Source of the DNA: Methylorubrum extorquens
GTDB lineage: Bacteria > Pseudomonadota > Alphaproteobacteria > Rhizobiales > Beijerinckiaceae
Assembly: GCA_900234795.1 (NCBI GenBank)
Contig: LT962688.1
Coordinates: 4,470,001-4,502,000, forward strand
DNA length: 32,000 bases
Reading direction: 5' to 3'
The notes beneath the pieces are model-generated. The model searched no databases, was not told the DNA's origin, and worked only from the letters and a program-made list of their open reading frames with translations. Position 1 is the first letter of the stretch, and each line of letters opens with the position of its first letter. Of the stretch, positions 10,971 to 32,000 are shown in pieces. A program made the position numbers and the translations under genes.

Positions 10971-11116
10971 CGGTATGACGAGGACGTTGGGAAGGACGAG
11001 TCTTGCCAACGTCGACATGAGCGGCGCTTCGAGGAGCCGCCACCGGTATGACGAGGACGTTGGGAAGGACGAGTCTTGCCAACGTCGACATGAGCGGCGC
11101 TTCGAGGAGCCGCCAC
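10971..11116. repeat. perfect tandem duplication of a 73-bp unit (10971-11043 and 11044-11116)
   Basis: The unit cggtatgacgaggacgttgggaaggacgagtcttgccaacgtcgacatgagcggcgcttcgaggagccgccac occurs twice head-to-tail with no mismatch. Each unit contains the palindrome gacgttgg...ccaacgtc. Confidence 0.95.
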
Positions 11117-16020: not shown

Positions 16021-16227
16021 ATGGACGAAGATCGCTTCAATATCGAATTGCGCAAGTTTTTGAAGGAAGTCGGCGTCACCTCGCAGCGTGAGATCGAACG
16101 TGTCGCCCGCGAGGGCCTCGCGCAGGGCGGCACGTTGAAGCTGCGTATGACACTCACGGCCGAGAATGCGCCGCTCGAGCACGTTGTCGAGCGGACGATC
16201 TCGCTTGGTGAGGGTGCAGACAGCTAA
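16021..16227 (+). CDS. small conserved hypothetical protein (68 aa; resembles DUF6494-type proteins, from memory and unverified)
   Basis: ATG ORF: MDEDRFNIELRKFLKEVGVTSQREIERVAREG... Its 3' third is duplicated as a remnant at 18925-19017. Confidence 0.6.
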   Translation: MDEDRFNIELRKFLKEVGVTSQREIERVAREGLAQGGTLKLRMTLTAENAPLEHVVERTISLGEGADS

Positions 16228-16586
16228 ACACTCTCGCTTACGGGAACGTGCCAGTAGGTCGGGCCGAAAGCGTCTGGCGCTTCATGCCCAGCGTGTAGCG
16301 GGTTCGGGCATGTCGTCAGCCATGTCCGTGTTCACCGACGTGATCCGCATCTGGCGCTTCCTCGGCAACTGCAGACCGAGCATACCATCGATCGACTTGA
16401 GCTCTGATCGATAAGGACCAGTGATTGATGCCGCCTCGGTCCGGCAGCGGGTGGCCTAGCCGCGGCACACCCACGGCACGCCATTGGCGGAGCCGTCCGC
16501 ATCCGCGGACACAGTGCCGGGCGCTTGAGCGGGCCCTTCGCCGCTCCCTGGCGCCCCCGACACGATTCGATCGTGTGAGCTTTGCG
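16136..16586. repeat. copy A of a diverged ~450-bp duplication, ending in a degenerate inverted tRNA-Arg 3' fragment (16549-16586)
   Basis: It aligns by eye along its whole length with 18926-19366, with many substitutions and small indels. The final 38 nt are the reverse complement of a tRNA T-arm/acceptor (tggcgcccccgacacgattcgatcgtgtgagctttgcg). Confidence 0.85.
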
Positions 16587-16705
16587 CGTGCCAGGTTTTC
16601 AGCGACGGACGATTTGCTCGTTGCGCTCTATGGCTACGGAGCAACATAGACAGGATCACCAGCGTTCTCCCTGCCTTCCGGCCGCTCCATTCGGTAATCG
16701 CAACC

Positions 16706-18883: not shown

Positions 18884-18924
18884 GCCTCACCCTGCAACCA
18901 GGAAAAGCTCGCTCGGGATCAACA

Positions 18925-19017
18925 ATGAAGCTGCGCCTGACACTCGTGGCCGAGAATGCGCCACTCGAGCACGTCGTTGAGCGGATGATCTCGCTTGGTG
19001 AGAGTGCGGACAGCTAA
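18925..19017 (+). pseudogene. 3' remnant of a second copy of the 16021-16227 small gene
   Basis: It translates to MKLRLTLVAENAPLEHVVERMISLGESADS, paralleling LKLRMTLTAENAPLEHVVERTISLGEGADS. The N-terminal two thirds are missing. Confidence 0.7.
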
Positions 19018-19366
19018 ACACCTCCGCTTACGGGAACTTGGTGGCAGGTCCTCCCGAAAGCGTCTGGTGCCTCATGACCAGCGTGTAATGGGTTTGGGCA
19101 GGTCATCGGCCTGTCCATGTTCGCCGACGTGATCTGCCCTGGTGTTCTCGGCAACCGCGGATCGGCTTGAGCTTTGATCAACAAGGGTTACCGACTGGAG
19201 GCTGCCTCGGTCCGACGCCGGATGCGCGCCAGCGGCTTGCCCAGCAATGGCGCACCCACGGCACACCATCGGCGCCGCGTCCGCATCCGCGGGCACATTG
19301 CCGGCGCTTGAGCGGCCCCCCCGCTTCCTGGCGCAACCGACACGATTCGAACGTGTGACCTTTGCC
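18926..19366. repeat. copy B of the ~450-bp duplication, ending in an inverted tRNA-Arg 3' fragment (19329-19366)
   Basis: 19329-19366 (tggcgcaaccgacacgattcgaacgtgtgacctttgcc) is the reverse complement of tRNA positions 19512-19549 with one mismatch. Confidence 0.9.
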
Positions 19367-19472
19367 TGAGGAGGGCCGCGCGGCCATCCCTTTGAGCGAT
19401 CAGGGCATTTCATCACCCCGCACAGCGCCGTTGCGTCCGCCGCCCAGTTGGGCTACTCACGAGCCACGGTCA

Positions 19473-19549
19473 GCACCCGTAGCTCAGCTGGATAGAGCGT
19501 TGCCCTCCGAAGGCAAAGGTCACACGTTCGAATCGTGTCGGGTGCGCCA
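19473..19549 (+). tRNA. tRNA-Arg (anticodon CCG), CCA encoded
   Basis: The 77-nt sequence folds as a cloverleaf. Arms: acceptor gcacccg/cgggtgc, D-arm gctc/gagc, anticodon stem ttgcc/ggcaa with loop ctCCGaa, T-arm acacg/cgtgt with loop ttcgaat, and terminal gcca. Confidence 0.95.
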
Positions 19550-19553
19550 ATCA
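19503..19553. repeat. attL: 51-bp direct repeat (tRNA 3' 47 nt plus 4 nt)
   Basis: ccctccgaaggcaaaggtcacacgttcgaatcgtgtcgggtgcgccaatca is identical to 31614-31664. Confidence 0.95.
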
Positions 19554-19656
19554 TAAGCCATTGTTTTCGCTTATGGTTTTCTGACCCTTCCGAAAGCTCC
19601 ATCTAGCGTTCGTGAACAGCCTGTCACGCTTTGTCACAAGCGACGGGTCACGAATC

Positions 19657-20655
19657 ATGGCGACTATCCGAAAGCGGGGCCGTTCCTGGCAGGTTCAGGT
19701 GCGACACGTCGGCTTTCCCACCCGCTCGAAATCGTTCTCTTCCAAGGCTGCCGCAGTCGCGTGGGCGCAGGCTCGGGAGCGGGATTATGCTCCGACTGAT
19801 GCCCCTACCAACCGGTCCGCTAGCGATAGCTTGACGGTCGGAGAACTGTTGCAGCGGTATCAGACTGAGGTAACTGCGCTCAAACGGGGCTACGCTTCGG
19901 AGAACTGCCGCATCAACAACATGCTTGGGCATCCCGTAGCCACCGTCTCAGTCACGAACATCTCATCGCGGCACTTCGCAGAATATCGGAACAATCGACT
20001 CAAAAAAGTCGGCGCGGATACCGTGAGACGTGAACTGACAATCTTTCGCCACTGCTTCGAGATTGCGAAGAAAGAATGGGAAATATCCTTAATCAAAAAT
20101 CCCCTGCATGACATCCGCTTTCCGAATCCAGGACTTCCACGCGAGGAACGGCTGCCGACGGATGGTGAAAGTAGACTAGAGCTAGAAATTGCAGCACTTC
20201 GCAACAGGCATATCGCTGCTGCCATAAAACTAGCTATAGAAACAGGAATGCGCCGAGGTGAGCTGCTGTCGCTAAAGTGGAAGGATGTCGATCTTGTTCA
20301 AGGAACAGCGCGTATACATGAAACGAAGAACGGAAGACCGAGAACGATTCCACTTACTCCGGCCGCCATCCGGGAACTTGAACGTATCGAAAGGAAAGGT
20401 GAACGTGTAATCCCGGTATCTGCAAATGCAATTCATCTTTGCTGGAACCGCATAAGAACACGAGCAGGACTGGGAGGATTGCGCTTCCATGATCTCCGGC
20501 ACGAAGCGATAAGCCGCTTTTTTGAGTTAGGACTCACGGTTCCAGAGGTTGCATTGATATCAGGGCATCGCTCCCTTTCAATGTTGCACCGATATACGCA
20601 TCTGCGACCAGAGAATGTAGCGCGTAAGTTGAGAGCGATGACATTTTCCACGTGA
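19657..20655 (+). CDS. int: tyrosine-type site-specific integrase
   Basis: MATIRKRGRSWQVQVRH is the N-terminal arm/SAM-like region. The catalytic signature is GMRRGELLSLKW (Arg), HDLRHEAISRF (HxxR) and LSMLHRYTH (His/Tyr). The ATG at 19657 is preferred over the track start at 19612. Confidence 0.92.
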   Translation: MATIRKRGRSWQVQVRHVGFPTRSKSFSSKAAAVAWAQARERDYAPTDAPTNRSASDSLTVGELLQRYQTEVTALKRGYASENCRINNMLGHPVATVSVTNISSRHFAEYRNNRLKKVGADTVRRELTIFRHCFEIAKKEWEISLIKNPLHDIRFPNPGLPREERLPTDGESRLELEIAALRNRHIAAAIKLAIETGMRRGELLSLKWKDVDLVQGTARIHETKNGRPRTIPLTPAAIRELERIERKGERVIPVSANAIHLCWNRIRTRAGLGGLRFHDLRHEAISRFFELGLTVPEVALISGHRSLSMLHRYTHLRPENVARKLRAMTFST

Positions 20656-20848
20656 ACTAACAGCGACACAGTTGATTCTGCAGGCATAAAAGAGGATCGG
20701 CGTAGGCCGGTGAAAATAAATCACCAAATGAGATTCATTACTTGCGGAATGGACCATATTCATCTCTGGCCAGCGAGTGAACCGACGTCGTTGGCAATGA
20801 GCTGTCGAGATAAAGTTGTTCTATAGAAACTTCGGAACCATCTCGGCT

Positions 20849-20901
20849 TATAATAGGCACAAAACCTGTCTAGAATCGCAATTTGTCTAGCGATCTGTCA
20901 G
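20849..20901 (+). promoter_or_regulatory. putative promoter/operator upstream of the helicase-like gene
   Basis: TATAAT lies at 20849-20854. Direct repeats follow: TGTCTAG (20867-20873, 20884-20890) and TGTCAG (20896-20901). No good -35 was seen. Confidence 0.3.
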
Positions 20902-20923
20902 GGATATTTTCTGGAACGATAAG

Positions 20924-23311
20924 TTGAAAAAGTTTAAGTATTGCCCTGCGCCAACCGGTGCTGGAAAGACGTATGCGATCGAAGGACGACTAGCCGAAAT
21001 CAGCCGGGACAGTGAGGCGGCCATTCTACTTCAACCCTCGAAGAACCTTTGCCACCAAACTGCAAGCAACATGGCTACACGCTTTCCCGGCGTGATGGTG
21101 GAGGTTTTCAATCAGGACGTGTGCGGAACGAAAACCGTAGTCCGTCTTGCCGAACATCTCAGAAATCCACCAGACCGTCCTCACGTAATCATCGCTACGT
21201 GGGCCGCGTTCATGATGCTCCCTCACTTCGATCGCCGTGAACGCTTCCACCTGATCTGTGATGAAATACCCCAAGCATTCGTGCCAAAAAGCATCAAGTT
21301 GCCTGACAATCATCACGCAATCACCGATGCATTGGAAATCAAGGACGTTGGACCGATCTACGGACTTGTCACGGCAGGCGACACAACTGTTATTAGAAGA
21401 ATTGCAGAGAACGTGCGCAACGATGCTTTCAATGATCTACTCAGCCCGCTCGCCAAGCATATTCACGAACAGCGATATCTGACCTATGTTGATCGTAAAT
21501 CCTACAACGGACTTCTGAGCGGAAGCAGAGACGATCGCTCACTGAACACCTATTCGATGCTTACACCTTCCGTATTCGATGGATTCCGATCTGTGACATT
21601 GGTCGGTGCGCGGGCGGAGGAAACCATTTTGTTCAAGTGGTTCACCCTGCAAGGCGTCAAGTTCATCCAGGATGACGCATTGTTGAGCAAGCTTCGATAC
21701 CACGATCATCAGAATGGTCGTCTTATCGAGTTTCATTACGCGTCTGAACGGAATTGGTCGCTGACGGAACAGCACAACGATCCATCACTTAGGTCGAAGT
21801 TTGAAGGCGCCGTTTCACAAATGTTCGCAGGTCAGCAATTCGTATGGCAGGACAACGTGTCGAATGAAGCGATGATGTTCAGAGATAATGGTTTGGCGCA
21901 CAACGTCGGCCATTGTGCACATGGTCTTAATCAGTTTCAGCATATTGATAAGGCTGTGATCTTTTCTTCGAAGAATTTCAGCAAACATGAAGGGGGATTT
22001 CTGAGTAACTTCTGTCAGATCAGCCCAACTGAACAACGTATCGCATTAGCTTATCATAGTGCTTATCAGACCTACAATCGCATCTCTGTGCGTGACCCTA
22101 ACAACAGCTCAAGGAAGATAGTGGTTCTGCCTGATCAGCAGAATGCTGCTTGGCAGCAGGAACGATATCCCGGGTCGATTGTCGTTCCACTCGGGATCGA
22201 TTCAAGACCTGTGGAGCGAACGCGGGCTGACAAGGTTCATCGCAATGACGCCGACCGACAGAAAGCGCACCGGGACAAACTAAAGAACCAACAGAAGGAG
22301 ATTATGAGCAATGTGATTGATGCAGTTGATTCAAAGCAGACATATGTATCAGTCGACGACTGTCACGACTACTCCTTTAATACAGTATCTTGTGTGACAT
22401 CCCTTCAAGGTTCCATTATTGCACATAAGCGGGATAAAGAGTCGACAATGATCGTCGGATCAAAAGACGGTTTTGTTGCGAACATGAAGCAAATGTCAAA
22501 AAATGTGCTTGAGTCAAAGGATCGTAACAGGCTGATCAGCCCGGCATTGTTCATCGATCTGGTAGGGTTTGCTTCACGTAGAGCTAAACTCAATGCGTTC
22601 TGCGGCAGAAATATATACCTCGATATCGAAAATGGGACTTTGACGCATAGACAACTGGCGAACATTTTTCCAAGCATCGAAATGCTGGCCTATAGCTCAT
22701 ATAGTCATACGAAGGAGATGCCCCGATACCGAGTTGTGTTGCTTACTAACACGATCATGTCGCCTGACGTGTATACAGCGATTTATAATATGGTTTGTGA
22801 GAGAATTGAACTGGCAGGATACAAGACCGCTTCCGAGCATGATTTCGATGCCAAAGAAAAGGTTCATGGAATTGATCGTAAGCCATATCTGACAGACTTG
22901 TTTTATCTTCCTTGTATGCCTGCGGATGGTGAAGGCTTCTTCCTGCACTATCACAAGCATCGCAAGCCGCTTGACGTGATAGGTTGGTGCAACAACTCCT
23001 ATCCGACACGGTTCGATGAGGTTGAATCTGTCAGCCTTGAGCATCACCTACCGAAACAAAACATCGACAGAGATCATGCCCAACTCTGCGAAGAAGCCTT
23101 GCAGAGGTTCCGCGATCAGACCGTCAATCAGGGTAAGAGCCATAAAGCCCTGCGGGCATTGAATTTCACTCTGCTCGAAGGTGGTGTCGATGACGTGTCT
23201 CGTGAAGTGACGCTGACTCAGGCAGCATATCTGAGCCGTTCACGGGAAGATCGGCTCAGGGATAAGCAGCATATGATGAGGTTTGGTCTGCGAAACCTGA
23301 GCCATCGATAG
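20924..23311 (+). CDS. SF2 helicase-like P-loop NTPase with a C-terminal DxE/SxH domain (prim-pol-like or nuclease-like)
   Basis: TTG start; 795 aa. Helicase motifs: motif I APTGAGKT (20948-20971), Ia ILLQPSKNLCHQT, II LICDEIPQ (21251-21274), and a motif VI-like YQTYNRISVR. The C-terminal region has IYLDIEN (22616-22633), SSYSH (22694-22708) and RYRVVLL. Confidence 0.75.
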   Translation: MKKFKYCPAPTGAGKTYAIEGRLAEISRDSEAAILLQPSKNLCHQTASNMATRFPGVMVEVFNQDVCGTKTVVRLAEHLRNPPDRPHVIIATWAAFMMLPHFDRRERFHLICDEIPQAFVPKSIKLPDNHHAITDALEIKDVGPIYGLVTAGDTTVIRRIAENVRNDAFNDLLSPLAKHIHEQRYLTYVDRKSYNGLLSGSRDDRSLNTYSMLTPSVFDGFRSVTLVGARAEETILFKWFTLQGVKFIQDDALLSKLRYHDHQNGRLIEFHYASERNWSLTEQHNDPSLRSKFEGAVSQMFAGQQFVWQDNVSNEAMMFRDNGLAHNVGHCAHGLNQFQHIDKAVIFSSKNFSKHEGGFLSNFCQISPTEQRIALAYHSAYQTYNRISVRDPNNSSRKIVVLPDQQNAAWQQERYPGSIVVPLGIDSRPVERTRADKVHRNDADRQKAHRDKLKNQQKEIMSNVIDAVDSKQTYVSVDDCHDYSFNTVSCVTSLQGSIIAHKRDKESTMIVGSKDGFVANMKQMSKNVLESKDRNRLISPALFIDLVGFASRRAKLNAFCGRNIYLDIENGTLTHRQLANIFPSIEMLAYSSYSHTKEMPRYRVVLLTNTIMSPDVYTAIYNMVCERIELAGYKTASEHDFDAKEKVHGIDRKPYLTDLFYLPCMPADGEGFFLHYHKHRKPLDVIGWCNNSYPTRFDEVESVSLEHHLPKQNIDRDHAQLCEEALQRFRDQTVNQGKSHKALRALNFTLLEGGVDDVSREVTLTQAAYLSRSREDRLRDKQHMMRFGLRNLSHR

Positions 23312-23382
23312 CAGCAAACGGAGTGATCTTAGCTCCTATTCTTAAGTTAACAGTCGTTTGTTATATTAAGAAACTCAAGAGT

Positions 23383-23403
23383 CGAGGGGCGGTCGTCCCC
23401 TCG
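23383..23403. terminator. GC-rich hairpin between the helicase-like gene and the next ORF
   Basis: cgagggg-cggtcgt-cccctcg is a 7-bp stem in an AT-rich context. No T-tract follows, so function is uncertain. Confidence 0.3.
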
Positions 23404-23507
23404 GCGGCTCCGTCTGCCACCGCTCGCCCTTAGCTCTTGTTGCGATTGCTTGTTTAGCATCGTCCAAATAACCATTATAGTTAAACAGAGAAAGCAAAGT
23501 CCTGAAA

Positions 23508-23888
23508 ATGAACTCATCTGAGCCGCTTATGATCAACCTGGACTGCAATGACCTTGAGTCAGTCAGTAAATATCTTTTTTTGACTAAGTTAGTCAAAAAG
23601 ATTGCTGACGTCTGCCCTGACTCGGACGTCATAGTAAGTCAGGATCCAGAATTTCCGACGCTTCAATATTCTATCGACACTGTTCGGATTATGGCCGAAA
23701 CACTCCCGAACTTTCGAACTGCGAATGATTTTATGAGTTATATCGGAATACTTGAGTTCGCCGAGTGCATGAGGCACGTTGCTGTTGCTGCGGGACGCTA
23801 CGGTATGCATCCAGCAGAAACCTACGTGACGAAAATGATACTGACAGTGGAACAAGTAGTTTTTGGAGACGAGGCCGAAGCTGCGTAG
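23508..23888 (+). CDS. hypothetical protein (126 aa)
   Basis: ATG ORF with island-like low GC and a protein-like sequence. No recognisable domain and only a weak RBS. Confidence 0.5.
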   Translation: MNSSEPLMINLDCNDLESVSKYLFLTKLVKKIADVCPDSDVIVSQDPEFPTLQYSIDTVRIMAETLPNFRTANDFMSYIGILEFAECMRHVAVAAGRYGMHPAETYVTKMILTVEQVVFGDEAEAA

Positions 23889-24100
23889 GAAAAGGAAATA
23901 GTGCCACGATAAGCACTAAAATCTCCCGGTCGTTAGTATCTGCTTGGAGCAAGTCGCCGCACTGATCCCTATGTTTAGGTGGATTGCGGCGGCTTAATTC
24001 TGTACGTGTCCAAAATTGTGGGAAATAAGTCAGTTGGATTATTCTAATTAACCTCATGATACTATGCCAGTTCTAGTAACTACCGCTCGAATTACATTCA

Positions 24101-24505
24101 TTATCTGTCTTCTGTGCGAGATTTCTTGCTGTCCGCAAGAATTTCAGCAAGTTTGTCCTGGCAGGATCTATCGAGGTAGTAATTGCCGAAAAACCCATTT
24201 GGAAATGTCGAGTTTCCGCTCGCGCGTGCCTTTGCAATGATTTCACTACGAATGTTCTCAAACTCTTTGGCGTGATCCTGCCACAGGCCTCGGTAACGCT
24301 TACCATCTGCTATTCTATTCGCAACAGAGAGAGCATGTTCTACTTCCTTTTCTATGTCGAGTGACGGTAGGCAAGCTTCACGACGCAGAACATTCCTTGC
24401 GAGGACAATCCTGCGGATCTCGGCTTCGTCAACGGCGCCGTTATCCACATTCCAGCCATGACGTTCGGACGCTTTGTCGCCGGGAGTGGGACGATCGTCG
24501 GTCAT
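24101..24505 (-). CDS. hypothetical protein (134 aa), translationally coupled to the upstream ARH-phosphatase gene
   Basis: Its ATG overlaps the upstream stop codon (ATGA, 24502-24505). No domain recognised. Confidence 0.65.
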   Translation of the reverse strand: MTDDRPTPGDKASERHGWNVDNGAVDEAEIRRIVLARNVLRREACLPSLDIEKEVEHALSVANRIADGKRYRGLWQDHAKEFENIRSEIIAKARASGNSTFPNGFFGNYYLDRSCQDKLAEILADSKKSRTEDR

Positions 24506-26055
24506 CGTAGGCTCTCCGTGAACACACGATCCGCTAAGCCCTCGATTCGATCATTCCAGGCCAAACGCTTCCGCCACCGTTCGGGGATGCCTGACAGACC
24601 GTAGAAGGCACCGGCAAGCTGGCCTGTGATGGCTCCTGTGGTGTCGCTGTCGTCCCCGAGGTTCACCGCCTCAGGGACGGCCTCCGAGAAGCTGCCTGAC
24701 GATCCGACGCACCATAGAGCGGCCTCAAGGGAGTGAAGGACGTAACCTGAGGATCGGATATTGTCCCGGTGTTTCCCCTTCCATGATCCCTGGATGATCG
24801 CCTGCACACCATCAGAGAGAGGATGGCCGAAGGATGCGCTCAGAACGTCCGTGAGCGGCTTTCCTTGGATTGCTGCGGCAAGGATCGCGGAGAAGGCTTC
24901 ACATGCGTCTACGGCCTCTTGAGCGCCATGGGTCGTGTAGCTTTGCCGTCGTGCTGCATCCTTCAAGCGGTCGGGATCGTTCCAGTAGCGAACGGCGACG
25001 GGTGACAGGCGCATCAGGCTCCCGTTGCCAGCGGTCATTCTATCCGTCGGACCCGCATGGATGTCTCCGGTCCGTTCAAAGTGGATCAGAGCCGTGGCTG
25101 TCACGTTGCCGATATCGAAGCAGTGCCCCGTTACGGAGTTCTCGCCGTCCCTGAACCACCGGCAGAATCGTCTCAGGAGGTCGCGTTCATCTAAGCCGTT
25201 ACGCGCGATCAGACTGTCCGCGAGGCACAAGGCCATCGACGTGTCATCCGTCCATTCACCCGGCTTAAGGTTGAAGGGGCCGCCGCCAATCATGTCCGTG
25301 ACGGGATCGAAGCTGCCGCGCTGTTCGAACTCTACGGTCGTTCCGATAGCGTCGCCCACGGCCAAGCCGACCAGTGCACCAAGCGCACGGTCACGGATCG
25401 CATCGAGAGTCGTTGAAGGGAGGCGTTCGGGAACTGCTGATTGACCGTGGACGTGACGTTCCTGCTCGTCTGTCTCGATAGCGCCTGGGCGGGCCTCACG
25501 GACCCTCTGAACGGCATCCTCGGGGGTAGCACCAAGTTCGACCAAGAGGCGTGCCGCGATGGTGCCGGCCCGTCCAAGCCCGCCTTTACAATGAACGACG
25601 ACGTTGAAGCCGTTCCGCAAGCGTGACCGGAGCACTTCACCAACCGTCACCCATGCTGCTTCGAACTCGTCAGTAGGAGCCGAAACATCCGGGATCGGCA
25701 GGTGCAACCACTCTATACCGTGGCGCCGGCATTCAACCTCGAGTCCCCCAACCCGTAGGGCTTCGATCTCGTGACCTTCGATCAGGGTGACGAGCGCGGT
25801 AGCTCCCCAATCGGAGATCGCCGTCATGTCCGTCGCCAGATCGCGGTGCCAAATGCCTGTTGCTGAGTCCGTCTGAACTTTTCCGGGACAGAACGTAACA
25901 CCGATCTCGCCGAAGCCATCACCAGCCGGGAGCGTCGCGATCATGAGGGGATGCGTCAGGCTTGTTCGTTGATTTGGCTGACTGTGACGGCCAAAGACCG
26001 TTCGAAAAGTATGGTAGGTATCCTCTGGCATAGTATGAATGCTCCTGCCATCCAT
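24502..26055 (-). CDS. fusion protein: protein-tyrosine/dual-specificity phosphatase fold (CX5R) plus ADP-ribosylglycohydrolase (ARH/DraG family)
   Basis: The N-terminal half has VVVHCKGGLGRAGT (HCxxGxxR P-loop; Cys codon at 25588-25590). The C-terminal half has GLAVGDAIGTTVEF, EWTDDTSMAL and GDDSDTTGAITGQLAGAFYG, the ARH metal-binding signatures. The likely true start is the ATG at 26031 (MPEDTY), preceded by AGGAG. Confidence 0.85.
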   Translation of the reverse strand: MDGRSIHTMPEDTYHTFRTVFGRHSQPNQRTSLTHPLMIATLPAGDGFGEIGVTFCPGKVQTDSATGIWHRDLATDMTAISDWGATALVTLIEGHEIEALRVGGLEVECRRHGIEWLHLPIPDVSAPTDEFEAAWVTVGEVLRSRLRNGFNVVVHCKGGLGRAGTIAARLLVELGATPEDAVQRVREARPGAIETDEQERHVHGQSAVPERLPSTTLDAIRDRALGALVGLAVGDAIGTTVEFEQRGSFDPVTDMIGGGPFNLKPGEWTDDTSMALCLADSLIARNGLDERDLLRRFCRWFRDGENSVTGHCFDIGNVTATALIHFERTGDIHAGPTDRMTAGNGSLMRLSPVAVRYWNDPDRLKDAARRQSYTTHGAQEAVDACEAFSAILAAAIQGKPLTDVLSASFGHPLSDGVQAIIQGSWKGKHRDNIRSSGYVLHSLEAALWCVGSSGSFSEAVPEAVNLGDDSDTTGAITGQLAGAFYGLSGIPERWRKRLAWNDRIEGLADRVFTESLR

Positions 26056-26364
26056 CTATGCTAGATACGGATATTATTCAATGGCCGTGTTTTTAGAATG
26101 CTGATTGGCGATAGCTTCAATGATGATGAGCGCAAGCTTCCGATTATCCTCAAAGAGGCCGTTCAGTATAAGCTTGATCCGCGACAGCAGCAGCGGCGTC
26201 ATCGGGGTTTACTATGTCGGATACCCGAAGAAGTAGGGCTTGGTAAGCTACGCCGCGACACAGCGAAGCGTTCCAATAGGGCTTACTTTAGCGGAAATTA
26301 GCTAGAGACGGCACGGCCTCGCGGAGACAAGCAATTCGAAGTTACCTGTCTCTGGGGGCAGAGA

Positions 26365-26934
26365 TTACGTCTTGTCCGGTTCACTCACAGGAGCGGCGGT
26401 GGCACCAACTCCGTTGCCGATTTCCACTCCGCTATGAGGTGGTACCCCAGTCGGCAACACAGGGGCGGCGGTAGGCTCTTCCACGGTCTGTTCAAGCCCA
26501 GCTTCCACATCGCGGATCAGGTCCGCAAACTCGTACGGCTTCCTGAGCAGGCGTGTGCCTGGTGGTAGCTCGCGTTGAGGATCAGTTACACCGCCCGAGG
26601 TCACGATGATGCCAACAGCAGGCCAGCGGTGATGAACAAGGTGGGCAAGCGCAACACCATCGCCCTCAATGCTCCGCGCCGTAATCAACAGACGCACGGA
26701 GGTTGAACCTTCGAGCACCGCCACTGCCTCGGTGGCAGTGCGGACTTCTATGGTCTGGAAGCCTGCATCCGCCAGCATGTCGGCCGTGACCATACGGATC
26801 AGTTCGTTACCCTCGGCGATGAGGATGGCGATGGGCCTGCAATTAGCACTCAATGAGCTTGCTCCGATCCGAGACGCACGGTTGTCAGGACGAGGAGCTG
26901 GGAGCACTCCGGCATGGCGATGTTGCCGCGCCAT
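26365..26934 (-). CDS. receiver (REC) domain protein lacking the phospho-acceptor aspartate (pseudo-receiver)
   Basis: It aligns to CheY-like receivers: ILIAEGNE occupies the DD pocket. LLITARSIEGDG replaces the usual LLITDxxMPGxxG, with Ala at 26677-26679 in place of the acceptor Asp. IIVTSG (Thr) and LRKPY (Lys) are retained. The C-terminal tail is Pro/Ala-rich. Confidence 0.7.
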   Translation of the reverse strand: MARQHRHAGVLPAPRPDNRASRIGASSLSANCRPIAILIAEGNELIRMVTADMLADAGFQTIEVRTATEAVAVLEGSTSVRLLITARSIEGDGVALAHLVHHRWPAVGIIVTSGGVTDPQRELPPGTRLLRKPYEFADLIRDVEAGLEQTVEEPTAAPVLPTGVPPHSGVEIGNGVGATAAPVSEPDKT

Positions 26935-27236
26935 GGACCCTGGTGCAGCAACTCCTCTTACCGCACCGCGAGCACAGCTCCTAATTCGAGAGGGGCCCTA
27001 AGCGTCAAGTGCACAAATGTGGGCTTGCCTCCGTGCTGCCTACCCCTTGGCTCCGTTCCCAAAAGGGCTTCCCCTTGCGGAACGCCCCAATTCGAAGCGG
27101 CCACCAACGGCGGTCTGCTAAAGGCGCACCCACAGCGTACCGGCGGCGCGGGTCTTCATCAGCATGCCTTAAGGATCACAGGCGGCACGCGGCCAAGGGC
27201 GAGGCGCTTCCTGGCGGTCGACGCCGCCACCCCGAA

Positions 27237-27800
27237 TCAAATCGCCGACTCCTGAGCTTCTGAACCGATGATCCGATAGACCTGCATCCGAGAGCATCCG
27301 AGAGCCTTGGCGATGGCGGCCGGACCATGCCCATCAGCCTTCATCGCCAGCACCTTCTCCCGATCCAGCCGCCGTGCCCCGCCCTTGTAGACACCCTTCG
27401 CCTTCGCGGCCTGGATGCCTTCCTTCTGACGTTCAAGGATGAAGCGTCGTTCCATCTGCGACACCATCCCAAGGACGGTAAGCACGATCCTCCCGCTTTC
27501 ACCGCGGGTTGAAACGTGCGGATCAAGGACGGTCAGATAGGCGCCGCGCTGATCCAGTTCATGGACGATGTTGAGAACGTCGCGCGTATCACGGCCAAGC
27601 CTATCGGCGCGGACCACGACCAGTTCGTCACCCTCGCGGATGAAGTCGAGGATCGCAGCGAGTTCCGTGCGGCCATCGCGAGAGGCCCCGGACACCTTCT
27701 CTGACCGGATCGGCTGGCATCCTTCGGCCTTGAGCCGTTCTATCTGGATGTCGAGCGACTGATCCTGGGCGCTACATCTTCCATATCCGATCCTCGCCAA
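27237..27800 (-). CDS. serine recombinase (resolvase/invertase family)
   Basis: TTG start; 187 aa. It has IGYGRCSAQDQ (catalytic Ser10), VVVRADRLGRD, and the C-terminal HTH AAIAKALGCSRMQVYRII. Confidence 0.9.
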   Translation of the reverse strand: MARIGYGRCSAQDQSLDIQIERLKAEGCQPIRSEKVSGASRDGRTELAAILDFIREGDELVVVRADRLGRDTRDVLNIVHELDQRGAYLTVLDPHVSTRGESGRIVLTVLGMVSQMERRFILERQKEGIQAAKAKGVYKGGARRLDREKVLAMKADGHGPAAIAKALGCSRMQVYRIIGSEAQESAI

Positions 27801-27829
27801 GCGTCACTCCAAGCTCTAGACCCTGTGAC

Positions 27830-27915
27830 AATGCCGTAACATTCAGGAACAAGCAAGCCTGATGTTACGCTCGCGCTTAGGGAGGATCGGCGGGAATGTT
27901 ACGTCACCTTACGGT
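27830..27915. promoter_or_regulatory. res-like recombinase binding region
   Basis: It lies immediately upstream of the resolvase gene. CGTAACA (27835-27841) faces TGTTACG (27863-27869) as an imperfect palindrome. A third TGTTACG lies at 27897-27903, followed by CTTACGG. Confidence 0.4.
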
Positions 27916-28186
27916 GCACCCTGATGGTATGGATCAGAACGACGACGGCATGATGCTGCAGTTCCAATCCATTTTTTTGTCGGTGCCGAGATACGGTCGT
28001 GTCGGCAGAATTACGGCTCATCCAAATTATTGTTTCATATGGATAGCCCCTCCAAGGCTTCGTCGTAGCTGATAGGCGAGGCCGTTTGGGTGCATGTCGA
28101 CATGTCTTGGAGGCACACGAAGCGAATCCAGGTGCCAAACGCCACCAGCTGAGCTATCCTCCGACGATCGGCGTCTCCCCATATAA

Positions 28187-31100
28187 TTGTTGAGCGAAAT
28201 GCTACAATCGGATTTGCTGGACTTCTATGATCGTGATGCTCTTCTGGAACGCCTCACAAATGGAATGGCTACATCAGATCGGCAGGTTGTGTTCGTAGTA
28301 GGATCTGCCTTAACATCTCCGCACGCCCCGGGGCACCGAGGCGTTCCGGGCGTTGACGGAGTAATCGAATTAATAGCATCGGAGTTTAATGAAAGACAGC
28401 GCAGTGAGCTGCTCTCTAAACTCGAAGTAGCTGAAAATAAATATCAGGATGCATTCAAGTTTCTTCTTGGTCGCCGCAGCCCGCAAGCAGCCAACGACAT
28501 AGTCAGGCGTGCCGTCGCCTCCGCAAGACGAGACTCCGTGGCCAGAGGCTCGGGTTATACGTTGAATGGGTCCACGAGCGAAGACGCTTGCCGAGCGTTT
28601 GAGTCAGATATTGCAGGCTGGTTTCTAAATCCAGGCGTAAGTGCTCTTGGCGAACTTATGGCAGGTTATCCAGAACGTTTTGGAAAGATTGTTCTAACCA
28701 CCAATTTCGATCCTCTAATTGGCATATCGATAGCAGCAGCAGGCGGAATATCATTCAGAACATTCTTGCATGGCGATGGAAATCTAGCCCATACTCAAGG
28801 TGATGGTGCGCACATCGTCCATCTACACGGCTACTGGTTTGGCTCCGACACTTTGCATACCGGAAGACAGCTTGGTCAACAACGCCCACAACTACGGTCT
28901 TCGCTAGCACATTTGCTTCGAAATAAGATTGTCGTTATTATGGCCTACGGTGGCTGGGACGACGTATTTACTAAAACACTTGTTGATGTCGTGATTGACG
29001 ACAATGCATATCCCGAAATCATCTGGTGTTTCCGAGACACTTCGCCATCAATGCGGCCAAAGCTTTTCGAGTTACTCAAACCTGGCATCGATCGCGGGCG
29101 CGTGTCATTATACGCCGGCATCGACTGCCACAGCTTTCTACCACAGCTTTACGACTCGTGGCTTTCTATTGAAGGCAAATCCCCTAGACGCCGACAGCCT
29201 CAGTTGTCAGTTGAAGCCTTTGACTCGTCTGTCATAGACCAGCCTGATACTGGGGCCAGTATAGAAGCCGAAAAAAAACATACTTCCAAATTCCTTTGCA
29301 GTTTGGAAGAGGACCGTCCTCCGGTGATTGACTTTCTTGTAGGTCGAGACGCCGATTTGAAGGATTTGGAGGCAAAAAGCTATCGGGTAGCATTTGTGAC
29401 TGGCATTGGCGGTCAAGGTAAATCCGCCCTGGTTTCAAAATTTTTCTCAAGCGATTCGACGATCAGCGATTTCGATCACCGGGTGTGGCTTGATTGTAAG
29501 GAACAAAGCGAGCGATTCGAAGATCATCTCGCTCATTTGATAGAGTCTTTAAATGATGGGCGCGCGATGAGCGCAGAGCTTTCCAAACAGCCAGCAGAAG
29601 ATCTTGCTGATTTGTTTTGTTCGCTTACCGCTGATTTCCGCATACTAATCATTTTTGACAACGTAGACCACTACATCGATCTTGAGCGCCTCGCTCTGAC
29701 CGGCGCGGCCAGACTGTTTGTAGAGAGATTTCTTTCGAAAGAGTCTAAAGCCAAGCTTGTTTTTACGTGCAGACCAGATGTTGATGAAGCTGACTTAAGA
29801 TTTTACATCAAGAAACTGGCCGGCATTGATTTGGTCGCTACGCGACGGTTGTTCGATCTGCGTGGCGCTAAAGCTAGTGACGCTTCTCTAGAGCGTGCGT
29901 TCAATGTGACCGGTGGGCATCCCTTGTGGCTCGACCTTCTTGCAGCTCAGGTCGCTCAGCGGATACCTCCGATTGAATTGGATGAATTGCTCGAAAACAT
30001 ATCGGCCGGCACCGGTGAAATCCCAGATGCGACTCTTAGATCGATTTGGACAAGCTTGAAAGATCGAGAGCAAATAGTCTTGCAAGGTCTTGCAGAAACC
30101 CTTCGACCAACTACAGCCATACAGCTCTCAGATTACCTTAGATCAAGAACCAATTTCAAGCAAATATCGAAGGCACTAAAAACGCTGAGAAGTCTCAATT
30201 TGCTCGTAACGAAGGAACTTGACGAAGGCGAGGGGTTTGAACTTCATCCTGTAATTCGGGCTTTCATAAAGAATACTTTCAAACGATCCGAACGCGTATG
30301 GTATATAGACGCAATTTTGTCTATGTACTCGGCTTTCTTTGGCACGCATCTCAAAGACCTCAAGCATCATCCATCATCGTCGATGGTTCGGCATTGGCTC
30401 GAAGGCGCCGAGCTTTGCATAAACGCGGGACATAATTCACAAGCTCTACTGAGGCTGAGCGAAGTGAAAGGGGTTTTTCACAGCAGCGAGCCTCCGGGTG
30501 AATATATTCGAGTCACGCAGATTTTATTGTCAACACTCCCGGTTTCGGAGTGGCAATCGCACAAACACTTCGATGATGTCTTCAAAGATTATCATCGCTG
30601 CCTTGTCAACATGGGCCGCGTAGAAGAAGCAGTAAGTGCGCTGGAACAATACGAGAAGTCGCTGGCGGGGAAGGATGCCCGCTACATAAATTACTGCGAT
30701 ATGCAGACTTACATGAATTGGATGGCTGGTAATTTCATCCCTGCAATTCGTTGGGGAACCGAAGGTTCAGAGCTCAAAAACACTAGCGGAGTCGACACCC
30801 CTTTCAATGCTGAACATAATTTAGCACTGGCGCGTCGCGACTCGGGTTCCGTTGATGTTGCGCTTCAATATTTTCTCAGAGGGGCCAATGTAGCCGATGT
30901 GCTGGATATCGCTAAAGTTGATGCCGATCGTGGAGGGGCGTTTTACGGGAATATTGGTAGATGCTTCCATATTATGGGTCAAATTGACTCAGCGTTGATA
31001 TGTTACGTTAAGTCGGCCAGCTTGATTGATACTGAATTCAGAGAAAATATAACCGAGAATCAAGGATACATAAGGCAATGGATTGGTGAGTTATTGTTGC

Positions 31101-31294
31101 AAAAAGGGCAAAAGCAAGCTGCATTGCATTTTTATATAGCCGCGCTCGAGAAATGGCGTGTCGTATCACCTCCGAAAGCTGCGCGCCTGGAAAAATCTAT
31201 GCAGGCTGATTGGCCCGATGGGCACCCAAGTATCAATCCTGCTCGCGCTGAGGCAGCTGTAATTAGGTGGGTTAATAGTAAGGGCGGTCAGTGA
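28187..31294 (+). CDS. SIR2-like domain / NB-ARC-type STAND ATPase / TPR-like repeat protein (Avs5-like, NLR-like antiphage architecture)
   Basis: SIR2_2-type motifs: VVFVVGSALT, TTNFDPL (28697-28711), HLHG (28820-28831) and AYGGWDDVF. NTPase motifs: Walker A GIGGQGKS (29402-29425), Walker B ILIIFDNVD (29642-29668) and the NB-ARC GxP motif GGHPLWL (29912-29932). The last ~330 aa are helical-repeat/TPR-like. The track start is TTG at 28187; the ATG at 28199 is an alternative. Confidence 0.88.
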   Translation: MLSEMLQSDLLDFYDRDALLERLTNGMATSDRQVVFVVGSALTSPHAPGHRGVPGVDGVIELIASEFNERQRSELLSKLEVAENKYQDAFKFLLGRRSPQAANDIVRRAVASARRDSVARGSGYTLNGSTSEDACRAFESDIAGWFLNPGVSALGELMAGYPERFGKIVLTTNFDPLIGISIAAAGGISFRTFLHGDGNLAHTQGDGAHIVHLHGYWFGSDTLHTGRQLGQQRPQLRSSLAHLLRNKIVVIMAYGGWDDVFTKTLVDVVIDDNAYPEIIWCFRDTSPSMRPKLFELLKPGIDRGRVSLYAGIDCHSFLPQLYDSWLSIEGKSPRRRQPQLSVEAFDSSVIDQPDTGASIEAEKKHTSKFLCSLEEDRPPVIDFLVGRDADLKDLEAKSYRVAFVTGIGGQGKSALVSKFFSSDSTISDFDHRVWLDCKEQSERFEDHLAHLIESLNDGRAMSAELSKQPAEDLADLFCSLTADFRILIIFDNVDHYIDLERLALTGAARLFVERFLSKESKAKLVFTCRPDVDEADLRFYIKKLAGIDLVATRRLFDLRGAKASDASLERAFNVTGGHPLWLDLLAAQVAQRIPPIELDELLENISAGTGEIPDATLRSIWTSLKDREQIVLQGLAETLRPTTAIQLSDYLRSRTNFKQISKALKTLRSLNLLVTKELDEGEGFELHPVIRAFIKNTFKRSERVWYIDAILSMYSAFFGTHLKDLKHHPSSSMVRHWLEGAELCINAGHNSQALLRLSEVKGVFHSSEPPGEYIRVTQILLSTLPVSEWQSHKHFDDVFKDYHRCLVNMGRVEEAVSALEQYEKSLAGKDARYINYCDMQTYMNWMAGNFIPAIRWGTEGSELKNTSGVDTPFNAEHNLALARRDSGSVDVALQYFLRGANVADVLDIAKVDADRGGAFYGNIGRCFHIMGQIDSALICYVKSASLIDTEFRENITENQGYIRQWIGELLLQKGQKQAALHFYIAALEKWRVVSPPKAARLEKSMQADWPDGHPSINPARAEAAVIRWVNSKGGQ

Positions 31295-31613
31295 GAATAT
31301 AACTCGGCGATCGAGTCATGCGTTTGCGGCCTAAATATCTCACAACGGATCCTGTCGCAATACAGTCAAATTATCTGCTTGTTCTTGTTCGAATGATGGC
31401 TTGGTATTGTTTGCTAGGAGATCTGATATGAAGACCGGTATGTTTGATCGGCACGAAGCGTCACAAATCACCGCTGAGCGAGCTTGGCCGGCCTGTCCTG
31501 CCGGATTGATCCATCGCGACCGTTGAAGTAGATTGGCCTTGTAACTCGCTGATCATTAACGCAATTGTGGAACTGGATGGATGCCTACCCTTCGAGAAAG
31601 CTTCATTTAGCGT

Positions 31614-31664
31614 CCCTCCGAAGGCAAAGGTCACACGTTCGAATCGTGTCGGGTGCGCCAATCA
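31614..31664. repeat. attR: 51-bp direct repeat identical to 19503-19553
   Basis: A base-by-base comparison shows 51/51 identity. The flanking bases differ on both sides. Confidence 0.95.
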
Positions 31665-31730
31665 ACCTACTGTCTCTGAAGGCAGATTTGGTTTCCAGGG
31701 TTTAGCCCTCAGTCCCCAAAAGTCCGTCTG

Positions 31731-32000
31731 TCACGCCGCTGTCACAGCAAAGCCGCGACTCATGGCGACAGCTCCTCGCGGCGATGTTGATGTCGGAAGC
31801 GTGAAACCGGCCGTTGCCGGGCTGGAAGCGGCTTTGATCGCTGCGCCGCAGACGAAGGGGTTCTGCTGATTGCCCAAGCCCCCACAAGTCAGGGTAGCCC
31901 CGTGCACACTGAAGCGTGAGCCGTAGATCAGAGAATTGGTGCCACCAATCCAGAGCCGGTTTCCGCCGTCCCGTGATGCCAGCCGTCCTGCCCCCGAACA
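31731..32000 (-). CDS. 3' end of an unidentified gene entering from the right edge
   Basis: The minus-strand frame is open from the window edge to the TGA at 31731-31733 (GGNRLWIGGTNSLIYGSRFSVHGATLTCGGLGNQQNPF...). G/C at the third codon position is only moderate, and no domain was recognised. Confidence 0.3.
   Translation of the reverse strand, partial: CSGAGRLASRDGGNRLWIGGTNSLIYGSRFSVHGATLTCGGLGNQQNPFVCGAAIKAASSPATAGFTLPTSTSPRGAVAMSRGFAVTAA

Follow-up and report, generated by a model that had tools for sequence, protein, structure and literature searches.

The locus and its boundaries

The DNA analysed here, called the window throughout, is a stretch of 32,000 nucleotides (nt) from Methylorubrum extorquens (assembly GCA_900234795.1, contig LT962688.1, positions 4,470,001 to 4,502,000 of the forward strand), and all coordinates below count from its first letter unless another record is named. 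At a tRNA-Arg(CCG) gene it carries an island of 12 kb with a tyrosine integrase, a putative replication protein, a phosphatase/ADP-ribosylhydrolase fusion (PTP-ARH), a small serine recombinase and a probable anti-phage gene. An earlier reading of this DNA from its letters and open reading frames (ORFs), hereafter the sequence-only reading, had placed an island in this tRNA gene between perfect 51-bp repeats that extend from the anticodon loop to the CCA end plus 4 nt; ARAGORN and a repeat search showed coordinates and description to be exact. The features that define the boundaries are as follows (attL and attR, left and right attachment sites; aa, amino acids).

19473..19549, + strand: intact tRNA-Arg(CCG) (ARAGORN; Rfam tRNA model, 67.7 bits)
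19503..19553, + strand: attL core, a 51-nt direct repeat with 51/51 identity to 31614-31664 (repeat search)
19657..20655, + strand: tyrosine integrase, 332 aa, full length (Pfam Phage_integrase 1.8e-26; phrog_1 1.1e-58)
31614..31664, + strand: attR core, the second 51-nt copy (repeat search)

ARAGORN finds no second tRNA in the whole window. The 3' part of tRNA-Arg(CCG), from its position 31 on, is part of attL: the core begins 4 nt ahead of the anticodon, includes the CCA end (19549) and closes with ATCA. The two cores have a start-to-start spacing of 12,111 and bracket 12,060 bp. A perfect 51-mer repeat is not a product of chance, and elements in other genomes are delimited by this core as well. 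We consider it highly probable that the segment 19554-31664 is a site-specific, integrative island in a chromosome of the M. extorquens group.

Base composition changes at the same boundary, from a G+C content of 0.657 in the left flank to 0.518 in the island interior. The sharp drop inside the repeats described previously is therefore real, yet it is not uniform, because the interior is a mosaic: the integrase, helicase and cargo genes lie at 0.48-0.53, and the part at 24.5-27.8 kb (PTP-ARH, a receiver-like gene and the resolvase) at 0.60-0.61.

Right behind the tRNA, island DNA at 19550-19582 contains the inverted repeat CATAAGC-N10-GCTTATG, followed by GTTTTCT, which is also kept in two of the related islands discussed below (L074 and L086). 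By its sequence it could be a terminator for the island-supplied tRNA; a simple terminator scan made no call on it.

Empty and occupied alleles of the site

Relatives of the locus were located by look-up of a 68-aa DUF6494 protein encoded in the left flank, which yielded ten genomes at NCBI from the M. extorquens group, DM4 (FP103042) and CM4 (CP001298) among them. These are 94-98% identical in DNA to the left flank, the identity stopping at window position 19514, and within 7 kb none of them contains the island or the right flank of the window. With the attR/right-flank junction as query, three contigs were obtained from metagenomes. One of them, L089, is the exact empty site: an intact tRNA-Arg(CCG) and ATCA are followed directly by the right flank of the window at 97.9% identity, the left flank is the equivalent of window 19249-19553, and the 51-nt core is present once. 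At the same junction, L087 carries the right end of a related island, in which the last 108 nt ahead of the core agree with the window at 94% and the DNA upstream differs, and L088 the end of an unrelated element.

Because an empty allele and no fewer than three different occupants of the site are seen, the 51-nt core is the exact insertion boundary. By the terms of the sequence-only reading, a segment carried by all close relatives, with no empty allele, would have spoken against it; the opposite is seen, with ten genomes lacking the island and one allele empty. Altogether, the comparison of these sequences points to an inserted island that was recently acquired and is mobile.

Integrase and attachment-site arms

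The integrase ORF is full length and its ATG at 19657 lies 107 nt past the end of the tRNA, which bears out the earlier description of an intact integrase gene adjoining an intact tRNA. Catalytic-type motifs RRGE, HDLRH, GHRS and RYTH are readable in its translation (the expected set being R..HxxR..H..Y), and its identity to the corresponding enzymes of related islands is 77-80%. Three further segments beside the cores belong to this context.

19621..19664, + strand: integrase-proximal arm with three GTCAC motifs, TGTCACGC..TGTCACA..GGTCACG (motif positions)
31506..31613, + strand: attR-proximal arm, 94% identical to related island L087 despite different cargo (blastn, L087 139-632 against 31506-32000)
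31728..31769, + strand: scar outside the island that resembles the integrase-proximal arm, CTGTCACGC..TGTCACA..TCATGGCGAC (local alignment)

The integrase-proximal arm is retained in L074, L086 and L072, and its GTCAC motifs, just ahead of the integrase start codon, are candidate arm-type or operator sites. The scar, of about 45 nt, has the same offset from its core as this arm; their alignment scores 30, whereas 2000 shuffles reach at most 26 and 514 real windows at most 24. The same pattern is found in L087-L089, and because it occurs also in the empty allele L089, it is a trace of an older related element and not part of the present island. A tblastn search to the right of attR for an integrase remnant found none, and only the scar DNA is detectable.

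A family of islands with a modular backbone

The window island is apparently a member of an undescribed family of 11-14-kb islands in Methylobacterium and Methylorubrum. The gene order of the family is integrase, helicase protein, a small ORF, a small ORF on the minus strand, PTP-ARH (minus strand), a middle segment, resolvase (minus strand), variable cargo and attR; in fuller islands the middle segment holds an Xre regulator (minus strand), small ORFs, umuD, umuC and others. L071 (Methylorubrum sp. B1-46) occupies the same chromosomal tRNA-Arg(CCG) locus as the window island, L072 and L086 are related islands that also lie at tRNA-Arg(CCG), and L085 shares the gene order. L073 (M. extorquens GCA_022214735.1) lies at tRNA-Thr(GGT) between perfect 33-nt repeats 11,275 bp apart. 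Its integrase is unrelated, yet the remaining backbone is 69-95% identical to the window, so that the integration module is exchangeable. These sister islands thus combine one backbone with swapped integrases (tRNA-Arg versus tRNA-Thr) and swapped defence cargo.

The genes between the helicase gene and the resolvase are the following (HTH, helix-turn-helix).

23508..23888, + strand: acidic ORF, 126 aa (no family match; 86% identity to its L073 counterpart)
24101..24505, - strand: ORF, 134 aa (ORF coordinates; no family match; 83% identity in L073)
24502..26055, - strand: PTP-ARH fusion, 517 aa (Pfam ADP_ribosyl_GH 4.3e-80; PTP-SAK 1.7e-13)
26077..26187, - strand: remnant of an Xre/HTH_31 regulator, its last 37 codons (tblastn with the L071/L086 HTH proteins, aa 81-117, 65% identity)
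26365..26934, - strand: receiver-domain-like protein, 189 aa, in the variable middle region (Pfam Response_reg 4.9e-4, under the cutoff; CpdR-like 6.4e-10, NCBIfam)

PTP-ARH is a conserved backbone gene of the family, 84-88% identical in L071, L072 and L073. It joins a Cys-based dual-specificity phosphatase (HCKGGLGRAG) to a Tri1/DraG-like ADP-ribosyl(arginine) hydrolase, whose closest solved relative is Tri1 (PDB 6dre, 8e-76); the match to the NCBIfam Tri1 model (1.7e-106) is under the cutoff of that model. The 134-aa ORF overlaps the PTP-ARH stop by 4 nt, and the two form one operon. At its position L071, L085 and L086 have unrelated ORFs (127, 168 and 174 aa). A conserved enzyme coupled to a variable ORF suggests a paired function, for instance with a toxin or a target-specific adaptor, as judged from the gene arrangement. 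The slot of the 126-aa ORF is likewise filled by a non-homologous ORF in L071 and L086.

The Xre-umuDC segment is present in L071, L085 and L086 and absent from the window island and L073, both of which are reduced derivatives; the present island copy is a deletion derivative.

A further relative, L074 (Methylobacterium sp. NI91, CP047607, 4569-12376), has an integrase-helicase pair 80% and 67% identical to that of the window. The pair directly adjoins NikA-like, relaxase and TraG/T4CP (type IV coupling protein) genes and a 1452-aa low-GC gene; the attachment core is degenerate (GTTCGAAGCGATGGCATCGTGGCGCGCCAATCA), and high-GC metabolic genes come straight after the helicase gene.

Mobile island or fixed remnant

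Several observations speak against an island that still moves. No circular junction or excision product was seen among the Logan contigs, which end at the repeat (assembly graph with k=31) and are uninformative in this respect. No recombination directionality factor was found either, the small ORFs screened as excisionase candidates giving no match. All sequences that reproduce the island exactly (0-1 mismatches over as much as 12,141 nt) trace back to three sequencing-run series and could represent a single strain. Finally, the island has neither an intact Xre-type regulator nor the umuDC segment of its fuller relatives; since the regulator is cut short, regulation, and perhaps mobility, may be impaired.

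Two signals from the assemblies were rejected. The Logan contig L008 (12,141 nt with identical 30-nt ends) was considered as a circle, but the 51-nt repeat yields just such a contig in a k=31 assembly graph. Contig breaks at 31652 are due to a 31-mer common to the core and an inverted pseudo-tRNA.

An island that integrated once in the same manner, has since lost regulation and excision and is now ordinary chromosomal DNA would account for the regulator being down to 37 codons, for the loss of the umuDC segment of L071 and L086, for small ORFs that include no excisionase-like product and for exact copies that are all identical and may be one clone. We regard such a fixed remnant as possible though rather doubtful, given that the repeats agree at 51/51 positions, that the integrase is full length with catalytic-type motifs, and that the helicase-primase, resolvase and cargo ORFs are intact. 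Moreover, L073, in the same deletion state, also keeps perfect repeats, and the empty and differently occupied alleles indicate recent turnover at the site. We prefer the reading of a recently inserted island that may still be mobile.

The 795-aa putative replication protein

Next to the integrase lies the longest backbone gene of the window island.

20924..23311, + strand: putative replication protein, 795 aa (Pfam DEAD; PHROGs 2467/31024; Foldseek)

The N-terminal half has a Walker A motif (aa 9-16, with GAGKT at aa 12-16) and an invariant D113-E114; it matches Pfam DEAD and ResIII and forms two RecA-like domains with Walker A and DExx motifs. A full-length AlphaFold model is moderate in this half. 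With Foldseek, the half finds XPD/DinG-type superfamily 2 (SF2) helicases in the PDB (E 5e-6) and jumbo-phage helicase proteins in BFVD (Atu_ph07, E 5e-30), and it is an SF2 helicase core.

The C-terminal part contains a domain resembling archaeo-eukaryotic primases (AEP) at about aa 535-715 and, behind it, a PriCT-like helical tail; PriCT_1 is detected in two of 50 members of the protein family. When the domain was remodelled on a deeper alignment, the predicted local distance difference test (pLDDT) reached 85.5, and the top PDB folds were all AEP: the S-2L primase-polymerase (PrimPol) 6zp9, LigD polymerase, RepB', and the PrimPols of African swine fever virus (ASFV) and human. The PHROG phrog_9765, 'DNA primase', matches aa 553-681 (1.7e-10). 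In motif I (LDIE), D567 is invariant in 50 sequences, and in motif III (HGID), D651 is nearly so. Other results weaken the assignment: the AEP matches of Foldseek are weak (E 6e-3 or worse, TM 0.3-0.47), the SxH histidine of motif II is present in the close family and lacks conservation in the wider one, and Pfam and PDB sequence searches with the primase-like domain gave no match. Thus the label 'helicase/prim-pol-like' of the sequence-only reading is right at the level of the fold, with an SF2 core and weak E-values for the AEP top matches. With moderate confidence, and on the basis of the models, we take the protein to be a helicase-first helicase/PrimPol fusion and likely the replicon of the island.

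Its close homologues number 14 (38-81% identity) and occur only in Methylobacterium and Methylorubrum, identity between islands being 67-69%. A profile of the C-terminal domain, by comparison, retrieves 647 cluster representatives (50% identity) among 1.84 billion proteins, most of them of about 800 aa with the same helicase-first layout. Scanned for relatives of the 795-aa protein, the viral contigs of IMG/VR gave none.

The recorded gene call in several assemblies is 746 aa long and starts at an internal ATG, leaving out the Walker A N-terminus (window 20924-21070). We prefer the TTG start at 20924, since it includes Walker A and agrees with homologues of 791-800 aa. The lesson for annotation is that the recorded call misses the Walker A motif.

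Serine recombinase and cargo slot

The right part of the island holds a recombinase gene, a cluster of short motifs and the cargo.

27237..27800, - strand: small serine recombinase of resolvase/invertase type, 187 aa (Pfam Resolvase 4.7e-35; phrog_125 DNA invertase 8.5e-52)
27835..27903, no strand: three ATGTTACG motifs, one inverted and two direct, upstream of the resolvase (motif search; four-island alignment)
28199..31294, + strand: cargo, SIR2 - NB-ARC (STAND NTPase) - TPR, 1031 aa (Pfam SIR2_2, NB-ARC, TPR)

The recombinase consists of a resolvase catalytic domain and a C-terminal HTH (Pfam HTH_7, HTH_23) and is 93-95% identical in L071 and L073. Upstream of it, the ATGTTACG motif, which has 11 matches in the window against 5.0 expected, is clustered three times, and DNA homology between islands stops at 27929-27966, just past this cluster and some 130-165 nt upstream of the resolvase start codon (blastn, alignment). 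We infer from this arrangement that the cluster is a res-like site and that the adjoining slot is a hotspot for defence genes. In other islands the slot contains a homologue of PD-T4-10_B (L073, 4.6e-28), a receiver plus PNP protein matching PDC-M60C (L086, 3.5e-113) and an LmuB-like ATPase fragment (L071). Inverted repeats around the cargo, as for an invertible segment, were searched for and nothing convincing was found.

In the window island the slot is occupied by a protein with SIR2_2 at aa 168-294, NB-ARC at 396-505 and TPR at 790-946 (Pfam). Its start is the recorded ATG at 28199; a TTG start was rejected, having no exact record. More than 675 full-length homologues are found across Proteobacteria, the best being 61% identical. 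PADLOC recognizes only the SIR2 domain, through models of proteins associated with prokaryotic Argonautes (pAgo). By architecture the protein is like Avs5 and other SIR2-STAND NTPases (PMC11897194, PMC12931631), with SIR2 as the N-terminal effector, a STAND NTPase in the centre and repeats as the C-terminal sensor, but its NTPase matches NB-ARC and its sensor TPR, and its family, of proteins about 1030 aa long, is a separate one with a wide distribution in Proteobacteria. What speaks against a closer relationship, and against a defence role, is that the PADLOC Avs models did not match it and that a comparison with solved Avs5 sequences gave none at E<=0.01. The defence role is thus assigned by analogy: the cargo is probably an anti-phage sensor/effector, Avs-like in architecture, with membership in Avs5 not demonstrated.

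Predicted cycle and routes of transfer

We propose that the integrase recombined the element-borne 3' part of tRNA-Arg(CCG) (attP) with the chromosomal tRNA (attB), with a crossover in or near the anticodon loop. As the island brings the 3' part of the tRNA to attL, the tRNA gene remains intact and the displaced original copy lies at attR. The same enzyme is expected to excise the island as a circle, with a predicted attP of ...CATTTAGCGT + core + TAAGCCATTG... and a restored attB of tRNA + ATCA + ACCTACTGTC.... The excised circle may be replicated by the helicase-PrimPol, and the serine recombinase could resolve multimers and/or mediate cargo exchange at the res-like site. By analogy, the SIR2-STAND protein would consume NAD+ on sensing infection and so abort the phage, and PTP-ARH might strip ADP-ribosyl marks or related nucleotides.

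How such a circle would reach other cells is a separate question. Searches of the island ORFs against Pfam, PHROGs, NCBIfam and PADLOC revealed no relaxase, coupling protein, type IV secretion system (T4SS), terminase, capsid or excisionase, in keeping with the earlier statement that relaxase, conjugation, capsid and excisionase genes are missing. Since there are no transfer or packaging genes, a helper is probably needed, be it a conjugative element, a phage or transformation.

The gene context of L074 makes conjugative mobilisation a reasonable route, as its related integrase-helicase pair abuts NikA-like, relaxase and TraG/T4CP genes. In its strict form, an integrative mobilisable element (IME) would carry an origin of transfer (oriT), and a co-resident integrative and conjugative element (ICE) or plasmid would supply the relaxase and T4SS that recognise it. 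Another genome of the group, L079, has at the same tRNA site an ICE-like element with TrwC and T4CP. The island itself, however, contains no relaxase, T4CP or recognisable oriT, and given its degenerate core, L074 may be just two elements side by side; we rate an oriT-based IME as unlikely.

A phage satellite similar to P4 or to the phage-inducible chromosomal islands (PICIs), which a helper phage would induce, replicate and package and for which the helicase-primase would be the replicon, is suggested by the 12 kb size, an integrase beside a primase/helicase-type replicase, the defence hotspot and the repressor-like Xre in fuller relatives, as well as by the best relatives of the helicase half in jumbo and T4-like phages. 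Against satellite-like behaviour stands that PHROGs and Pfam revealed no terminase small subunit, capsid, capsid-size redirection, packaging-interference or cos/pac-related gene, the IMG/VR scan has no relative of the 795-aa protein, and no helper phage is known. We consider it very improbable.

Comparison with known elements

The island is a tRNA-integrated, integrase-driven genomic (defence) island and as such a known kind of element. In function and layout it is closest, by analogy, to the tycheposons, cargo-carrying integrative elements of 10-20 kb in Prochlorococcus (bioRxiv 10.1101/2020.12.28.424599), to which we liken it by architecture. Both use a tyrosine recombinase at tRNA genes and leave partial-tRNA repeats behind; tycheposons have a helicase plus a primase or primase-polymerase as hallmarks, to which the putative helicase-PrimPol of the island would correspond, with small serine recombinases and regulators being frequent. 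Variable cargo, the absence of conjugation and capsid genes, and tandem arrays and degenerated remnants at the same tRNA are further common traits. Unlike tycheposons, the window island resides in Alphaproteobacteria, combines the helicase, which comes first, and the putative PrimPol in a single 795-aa protein, contains PTP-ARH in its backbone and carries anti-phage cargo rather than genes for nutrient acquisition.

Pipolins (PMC11551731) are likewise integrative, with tRNA-derived direct repeats and recombinases, and combine a mobility and replication module with a store of exchangeable defence systems. Because no PolB domain is found in any island ORF (Pfam, PHROGs, NCBIfam), the island is not a pipolin, a group defined by a primer-independent PolB; its putative replicase is a helicase-AEP fusion instead. 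With P4-like satellites and PICIs (PMC9122126) it has in common an integrase, a putative replicase of the primase/helicase type, an anti-phage hotspot and a size of about 10-15 kb; it differs in having no capsid-redirection, packaging or helper-derepression genes and in using another replicase family. Lacking packaging and capsid genes, it falls outside the definition of phage satellites, and lacking a relaxase, outside that of ICEs and IMEs.

A bolder interpretation, which we put forward as speculative and rather unlikely, would see here a family, so far undescribed, of defence shuttles in methylotrophic Alphaproteobacteria that depend on helpers, replicate themselves and are in function a counterpart of tycheposons or satellites. 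If it were true, such shuttles would have three hallmarks: a widespread, unannotated helicase-first SF2/AEP-PrimPol/PriCT replicase; a conserved operon of phosphatase and ADP-ribosylhydrolase directed against ADP-ribosylating toxins or signals derived from NAD; and a resolvase/res site serving as a dock for swapping whole anti-phage systems between elements.

Irrespective of this, the locus is a clean natural case of anti-phage gene movement in plant-associated and environmental methylotrophs, with an attachment core known to the base, an empty site and three different occupants. The 795-aa and PTP-ARH fusions are conserved and unannotated, which makes them candidates for a minimal island replicon and for a toxin or signal eraser, respectively, and the res-like site beside the cargo slot offers a testable route for the exchange of defence systems.

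History of the site and neighbouring loci

Nine of the ten close relatives, DM4 and CM4 among them, have a truncated tRNA-Arg(CCG) at this locus (L075-L078, L080-L084; e.g. L081 13321-13400). Its 5' part extends up to ...TTGCCCTCCGAAGGC and is followed by GGAGGACCCGGCTCTCC..., so that the T-arm is missing; neither ARAGORN nor Rfam detects a tRNA there, or a 3' half within 7 kb. At the junction of the truncation is a hairpin, CTCCG-AAGG-CGGAG, whose pairing is preserved by a two-sided change in DM4 and CM4 (GTCCG...CGGAC). Two explanations of the truncation, by a group I intron and by a 3' half located further away, were rejected, Rfam and motif searches being negative within 7 kb. Downstream of the truncated tRNA the relatives have at least three different contents, and the DM4 genome paper describes a 29.8-kb island at this locus (PMC2680597).

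In L079 (AP025942, 12651-20207) an intact tRNA-Arg(CCG) is followed directly by genes for a large serine recombinase, a TrwC relaxase and a T4CP. The same hotspot is thus used there by an ICE-like element with another type of recombinase.

To the left of the island, degenerate inverted copies of the tRNA-Arg 3' half lie at 16549-16585 and 19329-19381 (minus strand), with 91-92% identity to the attachment core, one of them sharing an exact 31-mer with it. Each terminates a direct repeat of about 460 nt (16133-16590 and 18922-19370, 84% identity), and the two repeats enclose an alpha/beta-hydrolase and a sugar dehydrogenase of the pyrroloquinoline quinone (PQQ) type. Between the copies, L079 and L089 have either another cassette (DUF72 and others) or no cassette at all. 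A scan of genome contigs for the dehydrogenase turned up no more than a 92% homologue, in Methylobacterium sp. R2-1, where both synteny and a tRNA are lacking. From its sequence, this arrangement looks like a second, older exchange site in opposite orientation.

Two smaller observations concern the flanks. For a 35-aa ORF in the right flank, a record look-up returned no match. In the left flank, 10971-11116 is a perfect tandem duplication of a 73-nt unit with a hairpin (GACGTTGG...CCAACGTC), located in the intergenic region between convergent genes; in the ten relatives the unit is present as a single copy.

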